A stretch of 64,000 nucleotides of DNA from an uncultured candidate division WWE3 bacterium (GCA_963765125.1 CAVXUZ010000005.1:361441-425440); one strand, 5' to 3'. Shown: positions 17,183 to 50,594, counted from the stretch's first letter. Program-made: numbers and translations. Notes: generated by a model from the letters alone, not told the origin.

Positions 17183-20862
<3,680 letters not shown>

Positions 20863-20866
<4 letters not shown>

Positions 20867-23800
20867 TTCGCTTCCTCCTCTGAACTTTCTACGTCTTCTT
20901 CCGCGACTTCGTCAGACTCATCTTCTAATAGCTCTTTTTTCTCTTCTTCTACGGGCTCAGCTGGGACAACAATTACTTCTTCTGGCTCGTCTTTAGCTGT
21001 TTCATCTGATGTTAATGCCTCAATACCAATTCCCAAACCGTTTAACTGTCTGACCAGTAGTTTAAATGTTTCAGGTACTGTTGATTCTGGAATTTCTCTT
21101 CCTTGGACTATTGCGCTGTATGCTTGTGTTCTTCCAACCATATCGTCTGATTTTATAGTTAACATTTCGTTCAAAATATGTGCTGCACCATATGCTTCTA
21201 ATGCCCAAACTTCCATTTCTCCAAATCTTTGTCCACCAAATTGTGCTTTACCGCCTAAAGGCTGTTGTGTAATTAATGAGTAAGGTCCTGTAGATCTTGC
21301 GTGCATCTTCTCTTCACTCATATGAACAAGCTTTAAGATATAAACTTCACCAACAACAATTTCTGCTGCAAAATACTCACCAGTCCTACCATCTCTTAAT
21401 CTCATCTTTCCTGATTCTGGGAGTCCTGCTTCTATTAAGTTCTTTTGTAATATTTTCTTCAGGAATACTTTGTAACAAGGGTACTTCATACTTCTTACCT
21501 AAGCTTTTTCCTGCCATACCTAAAGGAGCCTCTAGAATTTGTCCAACATTCATTCTTTTTAAAACTGCCTCTGATGAGAAAACAATGTCGACTGATCTTC
21601 CATCTGGCAATACCGGCATATCTACTTCTGGGAACTATAGCTGAAATAACACCTTTGTTACCGTGTCTTCCAGCCAACTTGTCACCGATCTCAATTTTCT
21701 TAAGCTGAGCAACATATACTGGTGATTTCTTCAATCGTTCCTGCTGGTAAATCTTCGTTTTCTTCCTTAGTAACTCTTTTTACACCAATAACAACACCGT
21801 GCTGTCCATGAGGCATATAAAGTGAGTTGTCTCTGACGTCTTTAGCTTTTTCTCCAAAGATAGCTCTTAAGAGTCTTTCTTCTGCCGATAATTCAGCCTC
21901 ACCTTTTGGTGCTACTTTTCCAACCAAAATATCTCCAGAATGTACTTTTGAACCTATTGTGACTATACCTTCGTCATCGAGATTTCTTAGTGACTCTTCT
22001 GAAACATTTGGAATATCGCGTGTAATTTCTTCTGGGCCTAATTTTGTTTCTAAAACTGGTATTGTGTGGTCAGTAATATGAATTGATGAGAGCGTGTCGT
22101 CTTTTACTAATCTGTCAGAAATAACGATACCGTCTTCAAATTCGTATCCTTCCCAGATCATGTAGGCTGCGGTAATGTTTGTACCGATAGCTAAGTCGCC
22201 CTCTGCTGCAGATGGTCCTTCAATTAAAACATCACCCTTTTTAATTTTATCTCCGGTTTGGACTCTTACATATTGGTTAAAACAGGTCTTGGTGTTTGAT
22301 TGTTGAAATTTTGTTGCTATGTAAGTAGCTTTACCGTCTTTATTATATTTAACTTCAACCTTGTTAGCGTCAGCGTAAATAACCTCACCTGCGTCAGATG
22401 CGAAGGTTACTGCGTTTGAATTTGCAGCGATATCGCGCTCAATACCAGTACCGACAATTGGTGACTGTGGTGTAACCAGGGGTACTGATTGAGACATCTG
22501 TTGAGTTCCCATAAGTGCTCTAGAGACGTCATTATTTTGTAAAAAGGGAATTAATCCAGCACTGATACCCACGATTTGGCTTGGTGTAACCTCAATGTAC
22601 TCTGCGTGTGAAGCATCACCCAATATAAAATTTCCGCCTTTTCTTAAAGGAATTTGACTTTCTAAGATCACTCCGTTTTCGTCTGTTTTAATAGATGCGT
22701 CTGTAATGAAAACGTTCTCTTCTTCATAAGCTGCAAGATAAACTATCTCGTCACTAATTTTTGGTTTGCCGTCTTTTGTCTTTTCAAGTTTTATATATGG
22801 TGTTTCTAAAAATCCATAGGAGTTTACTTTTGCATACATTGAAAGGTAGTTGATAAGACCGATGTTTGGACCTTCAGGAGTTCTGACAGGACAAACTCTA
22901 CCAAATGATGAATAGTGCACATCTCTAACCGCCATGCTTGCTCTCTCTTTTGTTAATCCACCTGGGCCTAAAACTGAAAGTCTTCTTAAGTGGTCTAATG
23001 AGGTCAAAGGATTCTGTTGATCTTGGAATTGTGAAAGTTGACCAGTTGCAAAAAAACTATGAACACTTGCTGCCACGGCTCTTGGAGAAATTAAAACTCC
23101 TGGCATGGGGAGTTCGTCTCTAGATTGCATTGTCATTCTCTCTTTAATATTTTTCTCCATTCTTAAAAAGCCGATTCTCATTTGCCACTGCAATAACTCA
23201 CCAACTCTTTTTACTCTTCTGTTTGCAAGATTATCTATGTCGCTAATGTTTCCAACACCATTATTTAGTTCAATAATTTTCTTTACGATAGATACGAGGT
23301 CTTCTAGTTGTAATATTCTGTACTTTGGTTCGTTAGGAAAGTCTAATCCAAGCTCTTGATTAAGCTTAAATCTTCCAACTTCACCCATACTATATCTTCT
23401 TTCATTAAAGAAAAGTGCGTCAACGTATTCCTTTGCATTTTCAAGCACTAAAGGCTCACCTGGTCTTTGTTTTCTATAAACCTCTAAACAAGCCTCGTCG
23501 TATCCTGATGCTGGATCTTTCGATAATGTGCTCTCGATATAATTGATTTCTGGGTTTGATTCTACATCCTCAAATGCGTCTCTAATCTGGTCATCGGTTT
23601 CAAATCCAAATAATCTTAATAGTGTGGTGATGGTCATTTTTCTTTTTCGGTCAATTTTTACGTTTATAACTCCACCTCTGGATGTTTCGATTTCTAACCA
23701 GGCACCATTTTTTGGTAATACTTTTGCTGAAGCTAAAAATTGACCTGAAACGGGTGAAACTTCTCCACTGAACAATACACCCTCAGATCTGATAAGTTGA

Positions 23801-24177
23801 TTGATGATAACTCTTTCTACTCCGTTTACTATAAAAGTACCTCTCTCTGTCATAAGAGGCATATCACCCATATATATTTTTTGTTCTTTTTTCTTTTTGC
23901 TGATTTGGTCTGAGAGGACTGCTTTTAAATACCAGGGGGCGTCGAATGTTCTTCCTGAATGAAGAGCCTCATCGACTGACATATTTTCTTTTTCAAATTC
24001 GGGATCTGATAGTGTTAAAACCCAACCTCTGCCTGAATAATCTTCAATAGTTCCGAGCTCGTCTAGGATCTCTTTAACGCCATCTTTTAAAAACCACGCA
24101 TATGACTCCAATTGGACGTCCATTAGATTGGGCAATGACAACTTGCTCTTAAGTTTTGAAAATGATTGGCGCATCAA
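20863..24177 (-). CDS. rpoB: DNA-directed RNA polymerase beta subunit. The N-terminal 825 codons are intact and the 3' roughly 840 nt is split by 3 frameshifts.
   Basis: Main ORF 21700-24177, then fragments 21495-21734, 21386-21619 and 20863-21489 carrying [15 protein letters not shown] and the acidic C-terminal tail. Confidence 0.9.
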
Positions 24178-45121: not shown

Positions 45122-45823
45122 GTGTCTGATAAGTTACTTATAAAAGATTTACTAAACGAAAATAAACCAAGAGAGAGGCTTATTGGGTTTGGTGATGCTT
45201 CACTTTCTGAATCTGAACTTCTAGCTTTAATTTTACAAACCGGCGGTGCAAATACCTCGGCGGTGGATTTAGCAAATTTACTCTTAAAGCATTTCGGTTC
45301 ATTAAAAAAGGTATTTGACGCTGAATATTTTGAACTCATAAAACTGCGTTATATTGGCGCGGCTAAAGCATCAAAGATTAGAGCAATTTCAGAGGTATGT
45401 AAAAGAATAATGCATACAAAATCCGACCAGCTAGAATTTATTAACAATCCAGAGTCTGCGTATAAAACCATTAAAAGATTTTTTGTTGGTAAAAAACAAG
45501 AGCACGTTTATCTTCTATCGCTAAATTCTCGAAGATGTGTCACCTCAATTGATTTAATATCTTTGGGCTCCATTAACGAAAGTTTATTTCCATTGCGAGA
45601 GATAATAAAAAAAGCATTAGAAAAAAATGCAGTAGGAATAATCATCGCGCACAATCACCCCTCAGGAGATTCATCACCAAGCCATGAAGACATTGAAATT
45701 ACAAAAAACCTACAAAACGCCTGTACGGCAGTAGGGCTTACTTTTATTGACCATATTATTGCAACTGAAACAGAGTTCACAAGTTTAAAAAGTTCGAACT
45801 TACTATCGAAGGGAGGTGAATAA
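45122..45823 (+). CDS. radC: RadC-family JAB/MPN-domain protein
   Basis: HNHPSGDSSPSHEDIEIT JAMM motif, with a preceding HhH-like region. Confidence 0.85.
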   Translation: MSDKLLIKDLLNENKPRERLIGFGDASLSESELLALILQTGGANTSAVDLANLLLKHFGSLKKVFDAEYFELIKLRYIGAAKASKIRAISEVCKRIMHTKSDQLEFINNPESAYKTIKRFFVGKKQEHVYLLSLNSRRCVTSIDLISLGSINESLFPLREIIKKALEKNAVGIIIAHNHPSGDSSPSHEDIEITKNLQNACTAVGLTFIDHIIATETEFTSLKSSNLLSKGGE

Positions 45824-46415
45824 AATGCAACTAAAAAAACCATCGATGAAGTTTATGCTCCTAGCAGCAGGTCTACTTGTTGTACTTGCTTCTGGCGTAA
45901 CTGTAGCAGCTTTTGGCGATAAAGGAGATATTCTTGGTTCATCATTTTCAGTAGGCAGCGCGGATATTAAGCTTCTCAAAGATTTAGCGGGGCCAACTTC
46001 GGCTAGCAATCTCACTGATACTCTTCCAGGACCTAAATTTTCTAACATCGGACCTAACTGGCGCCAAGATTACCCATTAAAACTTTATAACAACGCTTCG
46101 GGGCACATACAACTCACCAGCGTCTCAAATTACGAAACAGCCAACGATCCTGACGAGTTAAGACAAATCATCTATGTTGAACCAATAAATTGGGGTGACC
46201 CAAACAATAACGGGATAGTAGAAGATAACGAGCTAGGCTCTTCATTCGGAAGAAAAACAATCATCAAATGGAAAACTGAAGGATTTGATCTTAGTTCTAT
46301 GGCGTCTGGGTCAGTTAAGGGTATGATCTTAAGGTTTTCTACTGACGCTGTATCTGACACAAAACAAGGCAAAACCGCCGTATTTGACTTTATATTCAAC
46401 TCGCTGGGACTTTAA
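45816..46415 (+). CDS. secreted TasA/camelysin-like (Peptidase_M73 family) protein with SipW-cognate-type signal peptide
   Basis: N-terminal signal ...ASGVTVAAFGDKGDILGSSFSVGSADIKL matches the TasA/CalY AFxD...F..G..DL mature N-terminus pattern. Confidence 0.45.
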   Translation: MNKMQLKKPSMKFMLLAAGLLVVLASGVTVAAFGDKGDILGSSFSVGSADIKLLKDLAGPTSASNLTDTLPGPKFSNIGPNWRQDYPLKLYNNASGHIQLTSVSNYETANDPDELRQIIYVEPINWGDPNNNGIVEDNELGSSFGRKTIIKWKTEGFDLSSMASGSVKGMILRFSTDAVSDTKQGKTAVFDFIFNSLGL

Positions 46416-46448
46416 ACGATAATTGGGTATCGCCCCGGGAGATACCTA

Positions 46449-49055
46449 ATGCTGTCATGTGAGAAAAATATTAGATATACTAAAATGGTGCTCGATATAC
46501 CACGATCGATTAGTAAATTCTTGGTCTGGTGGTTTTATACTGCCCCAAAAAAAATATACACAATATTCACACGAATATTGATTTTTGCAAATTACGAACT
46601 TTCTTTTACAGTAAACCTTAGGTTAATCTTTACACCGCTTTATGGCGACTACTCATTTATTGGAAGAATTATCGGTTTTTTCACAAGAATTATTTTTATT
46701 GTGTTTGGATTAGTTTTTATTGGCTTTCTAGGAATTGTAAGCATGCTAGCACCAATCGTCTGGTATCTGCTTTTACCATTTGCGTTCTATTATTTTGATT
46801 TTTGGTCAATACCTTTTGTTCTTGCGCTTTATATAGCTGTAACAATCAAAAAAGTTACAACACCTGACAAAAAGGTTTCTGAGGTAAAAAAAGAACAGGC
46901 CCTCGATTCTTTTAGACCCGACGTTAAAAGAAATTTTATGGATATTGTAGGAAAAGGCGCGTATTTTACAAACATTTTTCTACATAACCCACAAATTTCT
47001 TACTTACTAAATAAATCAGAAATGGCAAATAAAGGGCTTGAGGATAAGATTAGTAAAACTGAAATATTTGAGCAGAGTAAAATTCAAAATCTTGCATATG
47101 ACTTTGCCATCGAAAATAAATCAAAATATGTCGAAATGGAGCATCTATTTATGGCTGTTATTACAGCAATTCCTAATATTGAAACCATACTCTCTGGTTA
47201 TGGCTCAGAACTACGTCACTTGAAAGAAAGCGCATTTTGGATTGTCCAACGAAGAGACTTTTTGAACAGTATGTACTTTTGGCAAGATGACTACATCATG
47301 CCCCCAATGGGAGGATTTGGCCACGGCCTTACAGGCAGAGTTACTCCCCACCTTGATGCCATCTCTAGAGATTTTACAAAACTTGTTAAGAGAGGTTTAC
47401 TTCCAGATATTGTTGGGCGTGATCTTGAAGTCGGAAAAATAGCAAGTACTTTAGGTGGCGCAAACGAAAACATCTTAATTCTCGGTGAACCGGGTTGTGG
47501 AAAAACATCTCTCGTAATGGGTATCGCTCACAGAATAATGCATGGTACTGAATATAAATCACTTAGAAATAAAAGGATTGTGAGCTTAGAAATGGGTGGA
47601 TTAATTTCTGGCGCGAGGCACTCAGGAGAAGTTGCGTCTAAACTCAAACAAGCGCTAGATGAGGTAGTCGCCTCAAAAGATATAATTTTATTTATTGATG
47701 AAATACATAATCTTGTTTCCCCCGTCGATAACTCAGAAGATTTTTCAACGGTTTATTCAATCCTAGAACCATACCTCGCATCAAGCTCAGTACAATTTAT
47801 TGGTGCGACCAACCTTGAAAATTACAGAAAGTACATTGAGCCAATAGGTTCTTTTTCTAGACTATTTCAAATATTTGAGGTTCAAGAAGCTGACTTTACA
47901 TCGACATTAGAAATTCTAAAGCATCGTGCAATTAGAGACGAACGTAAATATGGCGTAGTTATAACAATTCCAGCCCTTTTTAAGATTATAAAACTCTCCG
48001 AAAAGCTAATTCACGATAGGGTGTTACCAGACAAAGCAATTGATATTTTAAATCGTGCAACAAATGAGGCACGAAGTACAGACAGGGTTGTGAGCGTAAA
48101 AATTATAGAAAAAATAATTACTGAGATGACTCGGGTGCCTGTCTCTGCAATTTCTGATGATGAATCAGAAAAATTACTAAACATAGAATCAGAAATGAAA
48201 AAAAGAGTAATCGGTCAGGATCATGCAATTATAAAAATTGCTAACGCTATAAAGCGCGCGAGAGTTGGTATAAGAGACGAAAACAAACCAATCGCAAGTT
48301 TCTTATTCGTTGGAACAACTGGTGTTGGAAAAACGGAAACTGCAAAAACCTTAAGCGAAACATATTTTGGTGATAAAAAAGCAATGGTGAGACTCGATAT
48401 GAGTGAGTATCAAAGCCCAGACAGCATCGATAAACTTATTGGAACCTCTGATGGAAAAACAAAAGGTATTCTTACTGAGCAAATTAGAACAAAACCATTC
48501 GTTGTTTTACTTCTCGATGAAATTGAAAAAGCACATCAGCAGGTTATGCTTACATTTTTACAGGTTTTAGACGATGCACGTCTCACAGATTCGTCAGGAA
48601 AAACCGTTGATTTCACAAATACAATCATCATCGCTACAAGTAATGTGGGAACTAAACAAATTCAAGAAATAACCCAACGAGGCGGTAGCTATGAAGAAAT
48701 AGAAGAGTCGGCAATGGCTGCGGTAAGGGATAAATTTGCGCCAGAGTTTCTTAACCGATTCACCGGAATCATTGTCTACAAGCCTCTTCAAATTGAAGAG
48801 GTAAGAAAAATCGCAAATATTATGCTTGCAAATGTAGTAAAAAGAACGCAGGAGAAAAAAATTAAAATTACATTTAGTGATGAATTGATTACTGAATTGA
48901 TAAAGCGAGGATTTAGTCCAGAGTGGGGTGCGAGACCTCTTGCAAGAACAATCGAAGAAAGTGTCGAAACCTACGTTGCAGAAAATATTCTTAAAAAAGA
49001 GTTTAAACAGGGTGACACAGTAACATTAGGTATGGAAATATTTTTAAAAAAATGA
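46449..49055 (+). CDS. membrane-anchored double-AAA+ Clp/Hsp100-family ATPase (ClpA-like, no M-domain, no IGF/IGL ClpP-docking loop)
   Basis: Residues about 20-135 form four hydrophobic helices. A Clp_N-like repeat follows. AAA1 has GEPGCGKTS and ILFIDEIH. AAA2 has GTTGVGKTE and VVLLLDEIEKAH. Confidence 0.7.
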   Translation: MLSCEKNIRYTKMVLDIPRSISKFLVWWFYTAPKKIYTIFTRILIFANYELSFTVNLRLIFTPLYGDYSFIGRIIGFFTRIIFIVFGLVFIGFLGIVSMLAPIVWYLLLPFAFYYFDFWSIPFVLALYIAVTIKKVTTPDKKVSEVKKEQALDSFRPDVKRNFMDIVGKGAYFTNIFLHNPQISYLLNKSEMANKGLEDKISKTEIFEQSKIQNLAYDFAIENKSKYVEMEHLFMAVITAIPNIETILSGYGSELRHLKESAFWIVQRRDFLNSMYFWQDDYIMPPMGGFGHGLTGRVTPHLDAISRDFTKLVKRGLLPDIVGRDLEVGKIASTLGGANENILILGEPGCGKTSLVMGIAHRIMHGTEYKSLRNKRIVSLEMGGLISGARHSGEVASKLKQALDEVVASKDIILFIDEIHNLVSPVDNSEDFSTVYSILEPYLASSSVQFIGATNLENYRKYIEPIGSFSRLFQIFEVQEADFTSTLEILKHRAIRDERKYGVVITIPALFKIIKLSEKLIHDRVLPDKAIDILNRATNEARSTDRVVSVKIIEKIITEMTRVPVSAISDDESEKLLNIESEMKKRVIGQDHAIIKIANAIKRARVGIRDENKPIASFLFVGTTGVGKTETAKTLSETYFGDKKAMVRLDMSEYQSPDSIDKLIGTSDGKTKGILTEQIRTKPFVVLLLDEIEKAHQQVMLTFLQVLDDARLTDSSGKTVDFTNTIIIATSNVGTKQIQEITQRGGSYEEIEESAMAAVRDKFAPEFLNRFTGIIVYKPLQIEEVRKIANIMLANVVKRTQEKKIKITFSDELITELIKRGFSPEWGARPLARTIEESVETYVAENILKKEFKQGDTVTLGMEIFLKK

Positions 49056-49080
49056 GCCGTCATTTATTAAATAACGGCTC
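49054..49080 (-). terminator. 7-bp hairpin (gagccgt/acggctc, 13-nt loop) followed by a U-run on the minus-strand transcript (probably bidirectional)
   Basis: Lies between the convergent Clp-like gene and the small membrane ORF. A7 on plus 49046-49052 gives U7 on the minus strand. Confidence 0.45.
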
Positions 49081-49091
49081 TGTAAAACAGT

Positions 49092-49313
49092 CTAGACAAC
49101 AGCACAGAGAACAAAAACGCTAACGATAATTGTTGCAGCGGTTAAAACCAAACACAAAAAAGCAAAAAACGGCAATGACAATCTTTTGCGTGCAATTCGG
49201 TTTAGTAGTTTATGAAACCACTTTACCGCAACCGCAGAAAAAATAAACGCCATCAATGCCCCAATCAAACAGCCTGGTACAATAACTAGAAAATCCCAAA
49301 GTGTTTTAAACAT
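49092..49313 (-). CDS. small 2-TM membrane protein (73 aa)
   Basis: AGGAGG RBS 6 nt upstream. Hydrophobic hairpin topology. Confidence 0.45.
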   Translation of the reverse strand: MFKTLWDFLVIVPGCLIGALMAFIFSAVAVKWFHKLLNRIARKRLSLPFFAFLCLVLTAATIIVSVFVLCAVV

Positions 49314-49604
49314 TTAGCCTCCTATAATGTGTAGCAGTGACCCACCAATCAGAATTACCCCAAAACAGATTAAAAAGACAGAGGCTCCCCTATCTGCTCT
49401 GTATTGTGTCCAGTGCGGGTTTATTCGTGGTAAGTTCTCAACAAACACACGATATTTCTTTACGTGCCCTAGAAGGATTATTACACCTAGCAGCGCGAAC
49501 AACACGCCTAAAACCATTTGTAAAAGGTAGACCCAGTTCACCGTTACCTTCCTTTCCAAGAGTTTAGTTAGGAATGTTATACTACAAAAGTTATGAAAGA
49601 GCAA
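49314..49604 (-). CDS. small 2-TM membrane protein (start uncertain, 60-96 aa)
   Basis: Stop codon abuts the start of the 73-aa ORF. Divergent from prfB. Confidence 0.3.
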   Translation of the reverse strand: MLFHNFCSITFLTKLLERKVTVNWVYLLQMVLGVLFALLGVIILLGHVKKYRVFVENLPRINPHWTQYRADRGASVFLICFGVILIGGSLLHIIGG

Positions 49605-50594
49605 AATGAACGTTTGGATAATTTAAGAAAAAATCTATTTATTGACGATAAAAAAGCCAAAATAAAACAATTCGATGAAGAGCTTGCAGATGAAAAGATT
49701 TGGCAGAATTGGGAATTAGGGCAAAAAATATCACAAGACCGCGCCGACCTGGCAAAAGATGTGGAAGACTACGAAATGCTTGAGCTTATCTCTGAAACGG
49801 GAACACCTGAGGAGTTTGATAATGAGATAAAAAAGCTTGAGCTGAGGTACTTTCTTTCTGAAAAACACGATAAATCTGACGCCATTATGAGCATACACGC
49901 CGGCCAAGGTGGTACTGAGGCGATGGACTGGGTTGCGATGCTTTTAAGAATGTATCTTAGATACGCAGAAAGAAAGAATTTTAAAACAGATATAATTCAT
50001 ATGATTAATGGTGATGAGGCAGGTTTTAAAACAGTTACCTTTGAAATTGACGGTAAGTACAGTTACGGATTTTTAAAACGCGAAAGTGGAGTTCATAGAC
50101 TTGTTAGGCAATCACCATTCAATGCTGATGACCTCAGACAAACCTCCTTTGCACTAGTAGAAATCGTGCCTATGATTGACGACTCGATAGATATAGAAAT
50201 TAAAGAAGAAGATCTCGAGTTTGAAAGCTACCGCTCGGGTGGCAAGGGCGGACAAAACGTCAACAAAGTTTCAACTGCCGTAAGAATAAAACATAAACCA
50301 TCAGGTATTATTGTTGAAAATCAAAGCGAAAGATACCAAGGAAAAAATAGAGAAAAAGCTATGCAAATCTTAAAGTCTCGTCTTTACGCCAAAGAATTAG
50401 AAAAAATGGAGCAAGAAAAAAGACGCCTTAAGGGCCAACACATTACACCAGGTTGGGGTAATCAAATTAGAAACTACGTGCTTCATCCTTACAAATTAGT
50501 GAAAGATTTAAGAACTGACGTTGAAAGTACCAACCCAGATGCGGTTTTAGATGGAGACCTCGATTTATTTATTGACGCCGAAATCAAACTCTAG
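49593..50594 (+). CDS. prfB: peptide chain release factor 2 (single uninterrupted ORF, no programmed +1 frameshift)
   Basis: SPF tripeptide and GGQ motif (RSGGKGGQNVNK). The N-terminal region has ...NLFIDD... with no in-frame UGA. Confidence 0.85.
   Translation: MKEQNERLDNLRKNLFIDDKKAKIKQFDEELADEKIWQNWELGQKISQDRADLAKDVEDYEMLELISETGTPEEFDNEIKKLELRYFLSEKHDKSDAIMSIHAGQGGTEAMDWVAMLLRMYLRYAERKNFKTDIIHMINGDEAGFKTVTFEIDGKYSYGFLKRESGVHRLVRQSPFNADDLRQTSFALVEIVPMIDDSIDIEIKEEDLEFESYRSGGKGGQNVNKVSTAVRIKHKPSGIIVENQSERYQGKNREKAMQILKSRLYAKELEKMEQEKRRLKGQHITPGWGNQIRNYVLHPYKLVKDLRTDVESTNPDAVLDGDLDLFIDAEIKL

Follow-up and report, generated by a model that had tools for sequence, protein, structure and literature searches.

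We analyzed a gene for a membrane-bound ATPase, designated TM-Clp, in a 64,000-nt stretch of DNA from an uncultured candidate division WWE3 bacterium (GCA_963765125.1, CAVXUZ010000005.1:361441-425440); the whole stretch is called the window below. The results show that TM-Clp is a double-ring AAA+ ATPase of the Clp/Hsp100 type (class I) that is integral to the cytoplasmic membrane, lacks the element by which related ATPases dock ClpP, and has no Hsp70-regulated M-domain. Its first ~110–125 residues constitute an autonomous, previously undescribed membrane module, which serves this ATPase clade as its dedicated partner, either fused to the ATPase, as in WWE3-type Patescibacteria, or encoded by a separate upstream gene, as in other Patescibacteria. 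With a probability of roughly 45%, we favor the reading that TM-Clp is an ATP-driven remodeller or switch, which would act without threading at the inner face of the membrane and would use the second of its two AAA+ modules (D1 and D2) as the motor.

The gene and its putative ribosome-binding site are located as follows:

46449..49055, plus strand: whole open reading frame (ORF) of the membrane-anchored double-AAA+ Clp/Hsp100-type ATPase TM-Clp, 868 aa (ORF listing, Pfam, homologues).
46437..46442, plus strand: Shine-Dalgarno-like GGGAGA, 7 nt before ATG 46449.

Residue numbers refer to this ORF; numbers marked M13 count from the second ATG at 46485, so that the ORF number equals the M13 number plus 12. 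The start of TM-Clp is ambiguous, because most homologues start at the equivalent of M13, yet GGGAGA precedes ATG 46449; the first Walker A motif, which lies at about residue 333 in the relatives, agrees with the M13 start. The membrane module is retained with either start. A first-pass annotation, made from the sequence of the window alone, had proposed that a hydrophobic N-terminal block and the ATPase form one protein, and had named two weak points, a frameshift that makes the block a separate small ORF and a true start beyond the transmembrane region. Both candidate starts lie upstream of the membrane part of the module, and the ORF is intact and its N-terminal block conserved. Nevertheless, the block might be a separate small gene, or the product of a mis-called start, and its fusion to the ATPase would then stem from a faulty assembly or an indel: rpoB and rpoC of the window are broken into overlapping ORFs, which points to indel errors, and the module is truly a separate gene in other lineages. 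Against this, hydrophobic part and ATPase lie in one continuous ORF without an intervening frameshift, the identical 868-aa product was called on another contig of 13 kb, which came from a different sequencing run and was assembled independently, and the same collinear fusion was found in more than 100 relatives from many samples. The fused forms also lack the zinc ribbon and the two extra membrane helices that characterize the Clp proteins of the two-gene loci described below, and hence the fused forms are no frameshifted copies of these. An artefact is effectively refuted by the collinear relatives together with the second contig, and we regard it as extremely improbable.

A search with the full protein returned 4191 matches below 1e-50. 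The best 120 of these 4191 matches are 840–895-aa proteins with 48–62% identity at 97–98% query coverage, and their named sources are candidate division WWE3 or "Patescibacteria group" bacteria. The database names of the homologues are generic, either "AAA family ATPase" or "ATP-dependent Clp protease ATP-binding subunit". More than 100 full-length homologues from WWE3 and other Patescibacteria share the whole layout, that is, hydrophobic module, divergent Clp_N-like domain, D1, D2 and D2-small domain; thus, the search for orthologues in genomes of the candidate phyla radiation (CPR) that the first-pass annotation had suggested recovered the same fusion. A hydrophobic N-terminal block at about residues 55–125 was present in 121 of 122 retrieved relatives, the exception being a 770-aa fragment truncated at its N-terminus, and it is therefore not a chance feature. 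A scan of one genome per GTDB species yielded 59 loci, nearly all of them labeled as WWE3, Patescibacteria, "Saccharibacteria" metagenome-assembled genomes, Nomurabacteria or Parcubacteria, and including the complete WWE3 genome CP006914.1. One family member is located on a short contig (L043; JBAZEV010000237.1, 2.5 kb) that was binned as a Bathyarchaeia archaeon; most likely this is a binning error, all other matches being Patescibacteria. In the literature, no description was found of a membrane-integral Clp/Hsp100 protein in Patescibacteria, of the small partner protein, or of the loss of pore loops. A 2026 preprint on CPR pili was considered as a related description, and was found to be unrelated, with no ATPase involved.

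The membrane module was characterized by a profile of hydropathy, charge and conservation over 109 aligned family members, which divides it into five parts:

46497..46622, plus strand: module part 1 (aa 17–58), two amphipathic, K/R-rich helices with conserved F-x-x-W-W and A-P-K-K, probably cytoplasmic or interfacial.
46614..46688, plus strand: module part 2 (aa 56–80), most conserved motif, N-L-R-L-I-F-T-P-L-Y-G-D-Y-x-x-G-R-I-I-G-F-x-x-R (alignment).
46689..46760, plus strand: membrane pass 1 (aa 81–104), uncharged and hydrophobic (hydropathy and charge, 109 sequences), with a putative topology.
46761..46799, plus strand: short outer segment (aa 105–117), aromatic-rich, with invariant W105 and the pattern P-x-x-W-x-x-x-P (alignment profile).
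46800..46853, plus strand: membrane pass 2 (aa 118–135), followed by a K/R-rich cytoplasmic linker, missing from the stand-alone modules (profile).

The Kyte-Doolittle hydropathy (19-residue window) exceeded 1.5 only over residues 68–134, with a peak of 2.83, and in one marginal window in D1. Residues 1–80 are amphipathic, with K/R conserved at at least eight positions, R73 and R80 among them, and P63, G72 and R80 of part 2 are invariant even when the stand-alone proteins are included. The short outer segment carries charge only at its end, at position 117 (Asp in TM-Clp, K/R in 39% of the family). Because K/R flank the hydrophobic block, in line with the positive-inside rule, and the middle segment is uncharged and aromatic, the module would cross the membrane twice, and its hydrophobic segment would begin and end in the cytoplasm, as the ATPase requires. 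The four-helix membrane anchor of the first-pass annotation was thus rejected in favor of two passes plus amphipathic helices: only residues 81–135 are hydrophobic enough to cross the membrane, whereas ~17–58 are amphipathic and K/R-rich. The conserved hydrophobic N-terminus itself stood, not so its role as a passive tether; it is better described as an autonomous module, in which a pair of amphipathic helices and the invariant loop on the cytoplasmic side accompany the membrane passes. The module (aa ~13–125) had no match in Pfam, NCBIfam, PHROG, PADLOC or solved structures.

To find the module outside of the fused proteins, 1.84 billion cluster representatives were searched exhaustively by phmmer (E <=0.001) with M13 1–298 (ORF 13–310). 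Only 106 proteins were retrieved, namely the fused proteins and several dozen proteins of 105–135 aa that match just the first ~105 residues. These small proteins retain the F-x-x-W-W helix, the loop N-x-R-x-x-F-x-P-L-Y-G-D-Y-x-x-G-R-x-I-x-F-x-x-R, and a long hydrophobic helix ending in W-x-x-L-P; the loop core common to fused and stand-alone modules is F-x-P-L-Y-G-D-Y-x-x-G-R-x-I-x-F-x-x-R. Since they end after W-x-x-L-P, the stand-alone modules would cross the membrane once, with the C-terminus outside. In seven of seven informative loci, and without a counter-example, the gene for the stand-alone module lies immediately upstream of a double-AAA+ Clp gene, with an overlap of 4–13 nt or a gap of 7–145 nt. 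The Clp partners encoded at these two-gene loci are:

L002: 894 aa (L002:547-3231).
L003/L004: 916 aa by the gene call of the contig, 958 aa by our own ORF caller (L003:6369-9119).
L005: 828 aa.
L064: 868 aa.
L065: 846 aa.
L067/L068: 854 aa.
L069/L070: truncated, with 33% identity to D1 of TM-Clp (E=4e-46).

For the partner Clps of L002, L003, L005, L064 and L065, the computed hydropathy shows that the N-terminal region is itself strongly hydrophobic, and two hydrophobic stretches are visible in the translation of the L067 partner. Because these partner Clps carry such segments themselves, the two-gene loci are no frameshifted copies of the fused gene. Beyond the module-Clp pair, the neighbors at the two-gene loci are unrelated. 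Judged by this arrangement, module and Clp are a classic fusion/fission ("Rosetta stone") pair, and the membrane module is the sole universal partner of the TM-Clp clade. The pair offers a directly testable two-component system. Two side observations were made at these loci. The partner Clps of L002 and L003 start with a CxxC...CxxC zinc ribbon (DnaJ/ClpX-like) that is followed by two membrane-like helices, a second and different way to build a membrane-anchored Clp. At L067:7900-9856 the Clp gene is followed by genes for a 551-aa protein without a domain match and for a protein of the T4SS_pilin family, with recA upstream; this arrangement was not observed at other loci.

The remainder of TM-Clp is organized as follows:

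46890..47264, plus strand: all-helical N-domain (aa 148–272; M13 136–260), divergent Clp_N-like (AlphaFold2 (AF2) model, Clp_N score).
47265..47354, plus strand: Gly-rich linker (aa 273–302), predicted coil, nearly invariant (alignment, AF2).
47472..48176, plus strand: D1 AAA+ module and lid (aa 342–576), with Walker A 47484–47507, Walker B 47685–47702, sensor-1 47799–47813 and R471-L472 47856–47870 (Pfam, alignment).
47610..47627, plus strand: D1 pore loop G-A-R-H-S-G (aa 388–393) (alignment to ClpB).
48285..48764, plus strand: D2 AAA+ module (AAA_2, aa 613–772), with Walker A 48312–48335, Walker B 48507–48521, sensor-1 N732 48633–48644 and arginine finger R770 48744–48761 (Pfam, 109 sequences).
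48441..48467, plus strand: D2 pore loop G-T-S-D-G-K-T-K-G (aa 665–673) (alignment to ClpB).
48651..48707, plus strand: segment equivalent to the ClpP-docking P-loop (aa 735–753), of ClpB-like length, with T742-Q743-R744 in place of ΦGF (alignment).
48786..49025, plus strand: ClpB_D2-small (aa 780–859), with the sensor-2 motif G-A-R-P-L-A-R 48927–48947 (Pfam, alignment).

Four Pfam families match TM-Clp above their gathering scores, namely AAA (PF00004; 342–478, 94 bits), AAA_lid_9 (485–576, 40.8 bits), AAA_2 (PF07724; 613–772, 180.7 bits, E=2.9e-53; the check for this family that had been proposed was therefore positive) and ClpB_D2-small (780–859, 79.1 bits); residues 1–300 had no Pfam match. 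For the Clp_N-like repeat of the first-pass annotation the outcome was mixed. A helical domain is predicted at this place, and 6 of 10 tested members (TM-Clp and nine homologues) pass the Clp_N model (PF02861), with only the second repeat being detected, but TM-Clp itself scores below the threshold (13.4 bits, E=0.087, against a cut-off of 20.7). The linker between N-domain and D1 reads W-Q-D/E-D-Y-x-x-P-x-x-G-G-x-G-x-G-x-T-G-R-V-T-P and is specific to the fused subfamily; it could be the contact site for the invariant loop of the module. The full-length AF2 model (pLDDT 87.5, pTM 0.76) matched subunits of ClpC, ClpC1 and ClpB in Foldseek searches, with target-normalised TM-scores of 0.75–0.8.

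Two elements of well-studied relatives are absent. The distance between the two Walker A motifs is 276 residues in TM-Clp, versus 337 in Staphylococcus aureus ClpC and 397 in Thermus thermophilus ClpB; in ClpA, it is about 281 by textbook numbering. The ClpB models align in two stretches that are split at this position, whereas ClpA aligns in one, and AF2 places only short helices between D1 and D2. There is thus no M-domain between the AAA+ modules, as had been noticed in the first pass. The second element is the loop that docks to ClpP. The tip of this loop in S. aureus ClpC, AGF (671–673), docks into the H-sites of ClpP, and its mutation abolishes binding (PMC12521514). The segment 735–753 of TM-Clp is 7 residues shorter than its ClpC counterpart, AGF aligns to T742-Q743-R744, and no G-F was found at these columns in 109 sequences, so that a ΦGF/IGF docking tripeptide is absent from TM-Clp. 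D2 aligns without gaps to T. thermophilus ClpB here (SNVGTKQIQEITQRGGSYEEIEE in TM-Clp against SNLGSPLILEGLQKGWPYERIRD in ClpB). Because the docking segment is shortened and ClpB-like, with AGF replaced, the conclusion that TM-Clp would be unable to dock ClpP by the known route is well founded. The claims of the first-pass annotation that the protein lacks a ClpP-docking loop, and is membrane-tethered and ClpP-independent, are borne out by the alignment, in which careful inspection uncovered no IGF loop, and by the conserved N-terminus. A tblastn search with E. coli ClpP was negative for clpP in the stretch covered, namely the 64-kb window and 650 kb of related loci only. An M41 peptidase of the FtsH type was not among the 25 best of the 40 Pfam families matched, and the C-terminus is ClpB_D2-small.

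The similarity to ClpB raises the question of whether TM-Clp could be the general ClpB-type disaggregase or chaperone of the lineage, merely tethered to the membrane and without a special mechanism. Its layout of N-domain, D1, D2 and D2-small and the lack of ClpP docking are shared with ClpB/Hsp104 (T. thermophilus ClpB, 1QVR), and its D2 is free of indels relative to ClpB, including the short segment where ClpP-binding relatives carry the P-loop. D2 is nearest to ClpB (in the PDB, T. thermophilus ClpB gives the best sequence match, at E=2.8e-130, and is collinear with TM-Clp in D2), the top NCBIfam score is that of ClpB, and the gene is conserved and lies in a housekeeping region. However, the ~120-residue coiled-coil M-domain, which ClpB carries within the small domain of D1 and needs for Hsp70-coupled disaggregation, is absent, as are the tyrosines of the KYR and GYVG pore loops that are needed for threading by ClpB; the arginine pair of D1 is changed from RR to RL, and the N-terminus is integral to the membrane. 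A dedicated membrane module with a conserved motif of its own likewise points to a specialized role. The best NCBIfam scores, 538 bits for ClpB (in two stretches) and 484 bits for ClpA (in one stretch, 301–860), are far below the cut-offs, and every curated Clp family (ClpB, ClpA, ClpV, ClpG, ClpK) is missed by at least twofold: 538.4 bits were obtained against a cut-off of 1232.1 for the ClpB equivalog TIGR03346, 443.7 against 1417 for NF008118, 483.7 against 993.15 for the ClpA equivalog TIGR02639, 427.8 against 884.95 for ClpV1 (ClpV/TssH), 434.7 against 1900 for ClpG, and 429.9 against 1900 for ClpK. A general chaperone is therefore an improbable explanation. ClpA (E. coli; 1KSF/6W1Z) resembles TM-Clp in that D1 and D2 are joined directly, and M13 290–850 aligns in one stretch to ClpA 169–735; in contrast to TM-Clp, ClpA is soluble and has the ClpP-docking tripeptide IGL and pore-loop tyrosines. 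The best structural matches to the AAA core are ClpC/ClpE proteins (S. aureus, Bacillus subtilis, Mycobacterium tuberculosis ClpC1; Foldseek E=1e-43 to 1e-50), which also have a Clp_N-type N-domain; unlike TM-Clp, ClpC has a half-length M-domain (spacing 337), pore tyrosines, and an extended P-loop whose AGF/VGF is indispensable for the binding of ClpP (PMC12521514).

The motifs of the two AAA+ modules were compared between TM-Clp, ClpB and the family. Both Walker A motifs (GEPGCGKT 346–353 in D1, GTTGVGKT 622–629 in D2) and both Walker B motifs are present in TM-Clp, and in this respect the two AAA+ modules of the first-pass annotation were found; they are not complete, however, as the annotation had called them, since the pore-loop tyrosines are gone from both modules, and the D1 arginine pair, R-R in ClpB (R322/R323, 1QVR), is R471-L472, with Leu at the second position in 101 of 109 sequences. 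The D1 loop aligns without gaps (A-G-A-K-Y-R-G-E-F in ClpB, S-G-A-R-H-S-G-E-V in TM-Clp). At its tyrosine column the 109 relatives have T (51), S (38), N (10), G (6), H (1), F (1) and rarer residues (two), so that T, S or N account for 99 of the 109, and KYR is replaced by K/R-T/S/N-x family-wide; in TM-Clp the tyrosine position is occupied by His. In D2, L-I-G-A-P-P-G-Y-V-G-Y-E-E-G-G-Q-L-T-E of ClpB stands against L-I-G-T-S-D-G----K-T-K-G-I-L-T-E of TM-Clp, that is, 4 residues are deleted and no aromatic residue is left, and the family consensus is G-x-P-D-G-x-x-K-G-I-L-T-E. The comparison was extended to about 40 members of the membrane clade that diverge more strongly, among them all partners of stand-alone modules. 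None of them has G-Y-V-G; the D2 loop can have full length, with Q, R, H, E or S in place of Y, or be shortened to the point of being deleted altogether. Several of these members have a degenerate D1 Walker A (GVGRK, GIGKE, GTGKD, GSGRT; it reads GVGRKT in L003 and GIGKET in L005). The D2 Walker A is intact in every divergent member of the Clp type, with minor variation (G-[PTSA]-T-G-[VIT]-G-K-T), and K628, D690/E691, N732, R770 and the sensor-2 residues R829/R833 of D2 are invariant in the 109 sequences. These motifs indicate that D2 is a conserved ATPase with all catalytic motifs kept, that D1 is partly degenerate and appears to be drifting toward a structural or nucleotide-binding role, and that the elements by which studied Hsp100 proteins grip polypeptides are apparently not under selection in the membrane clade.

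These results bear directly on the proposal of the first-pass annotation that TM-Clp is an unfoldase, possibly one that extracts membrane proteins. Such a membrane-tethered, ClpP-independent extractase would thread its substrates from the membrane-facing D1 side through both rings, as FtsH and Msp1 do, using non-canonical loops. The entry side of D1 would face the membrane owing to the N-terminal anchor, the D2 ATPase site is intact, the fold is that of ClpB/ClpC hexamer subunits, and substrate contacts could be made by the conserved, hydrophobic I-L pair beside the D2 loop as well as by the Lys that is found in either loop. However, the aromatic pore-loop residues, which are regarded as critical for processive unfolding by Clp/Hsp100 proteins (PMC5425593), are missing from both rings across the family, the length of the D2 loop varies down to full deletion, which is unexpected for a substrate-gripping element, and several lineages have a degenerate Walker A in D1. 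The proposal is thereby weakened, and we regard extraction by threading as doubtful, though as the next most likely reading after the favored one. FtsH and Msp1/ATAD1 do share with TM-Clp an N-terminal anchor that sets the substrate-entry face against the membrane, but both are classical AAA proteins that form a single ring and have aromatic pore loops; FtsH also has an M41 protease, and the sequence kinship is limited to the AAA fold.

The favored reading, a non-threading remodeller or switch driven by D2, would work as follows. The N-terminal anchor would orient the D1/N-domain face of the hexamer toward the membrane, because both ends of the hydrophobic segment would lie in the cytoplasm. 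As neither ring has aromatic loop residues and evolution has been free to shorten or remove the D2 loop, processive threading would most likely not take place. Since the loops of the central channel appear to be dispensable in evolution, the conformational work driven by ATP hydrolysis in D2, the putative motor, would most likely be done at the membrane-proximal face, where the N-domain, the Gly-rich linker and the module's invariant loop on the cytoplasmic side are predicted to lie, and the target would be a membrane-associated client or the protein's own membrane partner.

The nearest functional precedent, in the sense of a loose analogy and not of membership, would be the Torsins of the eukaryotic ER and nuclear envelope. 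They are phylogenetically closest to Clp/Hsp100 proteins, are membrane-associated by an N-terminal hydrophobic domain, depend on dedicated membrane-protein partners, and lack aromatic pore loops, so that processive unfolding is considered improbable (PMC5425593). The hydrophobic N-terminus, the loss of aromatic pore loops and the dedicated membrane partner are common to Torsins and TM-Clp. In contrast, Torsins are single-ring, with one AAA module that resembles D2 of Clp, and luminal, and their arginine finger is supplied by LAP1/LULL1, whereas TM-Clp is double-ring and cytoplasmic, and its own R770 and sensor-2 GAR are invariant; no homology was detected between the membrane parts of Torsins and TM-Clp.

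Several points weigh against the favored reading. The absence of aromatic loops is no proof against translocation, as conserved Lys, Thr/Ser and Ile-Leu residues could grip a substrate. The Torsin analogy is partial, given that TM-Clp retains the D2 arginine finger and sensor-2. The topology is predicted from hydropathy and charge, and AF2 models M13 residues 58–124 as a single continuous helix; this helix cannot be taken literally in a bilayer, and we did not rely on it. Lastly, outside of WWE3 the gene neighborhood gives no functional clue except for the adjacency of prfB.

Within WWE3, the gene neighborhood allows for a third mechanism. The neighborhoods were compared for 66 sources (65 related loci and the window), 52 of which have a full-length Clp gene. 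A gene for a secreted protein of ~195 aa is present in 47 of the 66 sources (clusters 2 and 12; L001, L007–L058), usually as the co-directional left neighbor of TM-Clp, and in 17 sources the two are separated by a gene for a signal peptidase I of the SipW/archaeal type (92 bits with TIGR02228, whose cut-off is 52). In the window, this neighbor is:

45816..46415, plus strand: co-directional upstream gene, 199 aa, with signal-anchor, AAFGD and a Ca-loop-like motif (conserved left neighbor).

Its motifs are a signal-anchor, A-A-F-G/T-D and the Ca-loop-like D-x-N-N-N-G-x-x-D-x-x-E, and it had no match in Pfam, NCBIfam, PHROG, PADLOC or the PDB. It may resemble SipW-dependent signal peptides of the TasA/camelysin type. 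The co-directional WWE3-type order of radC, secreted protein, signal peptidase (where present) and TM-Clp, seen in these 47 sources, might indicate that TM-Clp is a translocation motor, which would sit on a conduit of 12 (fused form) or more membrane helices per hexamer and move cargo across or out of the membrane by large ring movements; PTEX HSP101/EXP2 and Bcs1 would be distant parallels. Lys, Ser and Thr abound in the pore loops, and the conservation of the module goes far beyond what a passive anchor requires. On the other hand, the synteny is limited to one lineage and lies inside a housekeeping block (ribosomal proteins, rpoA, prfB, ftsK), so that it may reflect shared ancestry; the two-gene variants have unrelated neighbors, the outer loop has just ~13 residues, and there is no sign of a pore. 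A translocation motor is therefore rather unlikely. The secreted protein may have a functional link to TM-Clp, and the secreted protein/SipW association, being lineage-restricted, may be inherited gene order. In its boldest form, to which we likewise give little credence, TM-Clp and the small membrane subunit would be a Patescibacteria-specific membrane machine, an Hsp100 double ring without threading in which D2 gates or drives the conduit. Its cargo could be the SipW-dependent secreted protein encoded next to it, or a polymer such as nucleic acid that is handled via the Lys/Ser/Thr-rich loops. If this were true, no known Clp would resemble such an ATP-powered translocase or assembly motor.

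Known machines at membranes differ from TM-Clp in several respects. HSP101 of the Plasmodium PTEX complex (6E10/6E11) is an Hsp100 protein that acts at a membrane and is among the PDB sequence matches (E about 1e-93), but it is soluble, is docked to the EXP2 pore via PTEX150, threads with canonical loops, and has no related membrane module. Bcs1, an AAA ring anchored by its N-terminus, transports cargo through large-scale motions of the ring; unlike TM-Clp it is single-ring, is heptameric, and has no related membrane module.

Hsp100/Clp ATPases are textbook examples of soluble threading motors driven by tyrosine loops, and the TM-Clp clade departs from this on both counts. It differs in four ways: it is membrane-integral, it has an obligate small membrane partner, it has lost the ClpP loop, the M-domain and the aromatic loops, and it has kept the D2 ATPase intact. 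TM-Clp is clearly derived from the Clp/Hsp100 kind, yet lacks the defining properties of ClpA, ClpB, ClpC, ClpV, ClpG, ClpK, FtsH and Torsin, and it probably works differently from any studied family member. An Hsp100 scaffold would thus have been repurposed in bacteria, as the Torsins did in eukaryotes, and the clade might serve as a bacterial model for what a Clp-like ATPase without pore loops does. Because the gene lies in a conserved housekeeping block and the genomes are minimal, with an epibiotic, membrane-centered lifestyle, TM-Clp probably serves an important membrane process in WWE3 and related Patescibacteria.

The housekeeping block of the window comprises, far upstream of TM-Clp, the genes for SecY, EF-Tu, EF-G, rpoB/C, SecA and SerRS. 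Next come rpsM-rpsK-rpsD-rpoA-rplQ-rplM-rpsI, an oppositely oriented HTH (helix-turn-helix) gene, radC, and the gene for the 199-aa secreted protein; downstream of TM-Clp follow two small membrane ORFs on the other strand, prfB, a RodZ-like gene, ftsK, RNase J, PNPase and IF-2. In most sources prfB follows TM-Clp, also in a more distant subgroup with an AP endonuclease as the left neighbor. A Clp-RF2 fusion seen in L057 was an artefact of a masked N-run. In prfB of the window (49593..50594), a CTTTGA programmed-frameshift site was looked for and not found. A role in defense, suggested by PADLOC matches (DolB, PDC-M37B), was rejected: the similarity is generic and confined to the D2 region (about 111 bits), the module and the neighbor have no match, and the locus is a housekeeping block. 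For a phage origin, the module and the upstream neighbor gene were scanned, and neither had a PHROG match.

Both rpo genes of the window, which lie on the minus strand, are fragmented. The rpoB gene is in two pieces, 21700..24177 (825 aa) and 20863..21489 (208 aa), between which the conserved middle part is missing, and rpoC is in at least six pieces (19772..20866, 19543..19842, 19392..19607, 18012..18905, 17746..18015, 17183..17749). The overlap of the ORFs over 17183..24177 suggests assembly indel errors, not biology, and calls for caution with ORF-based readings elsewhere in the window. Directly behind TM-Clp lies one further feature:

49054..49080, no strand assigned: terminator-like hairpin with a 12-bp perfect stem, which covers the last two bases of the TM-Clp stop codon and extends just beyond it.

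The two small ORFs between TM-Clp and prfB (49092..49604, minus strand) encode hydrophobic proteins of 73 and 96 aa, and the 73-aa ORF is preceded by an AGGAGG Shine-Dalgarno motif.

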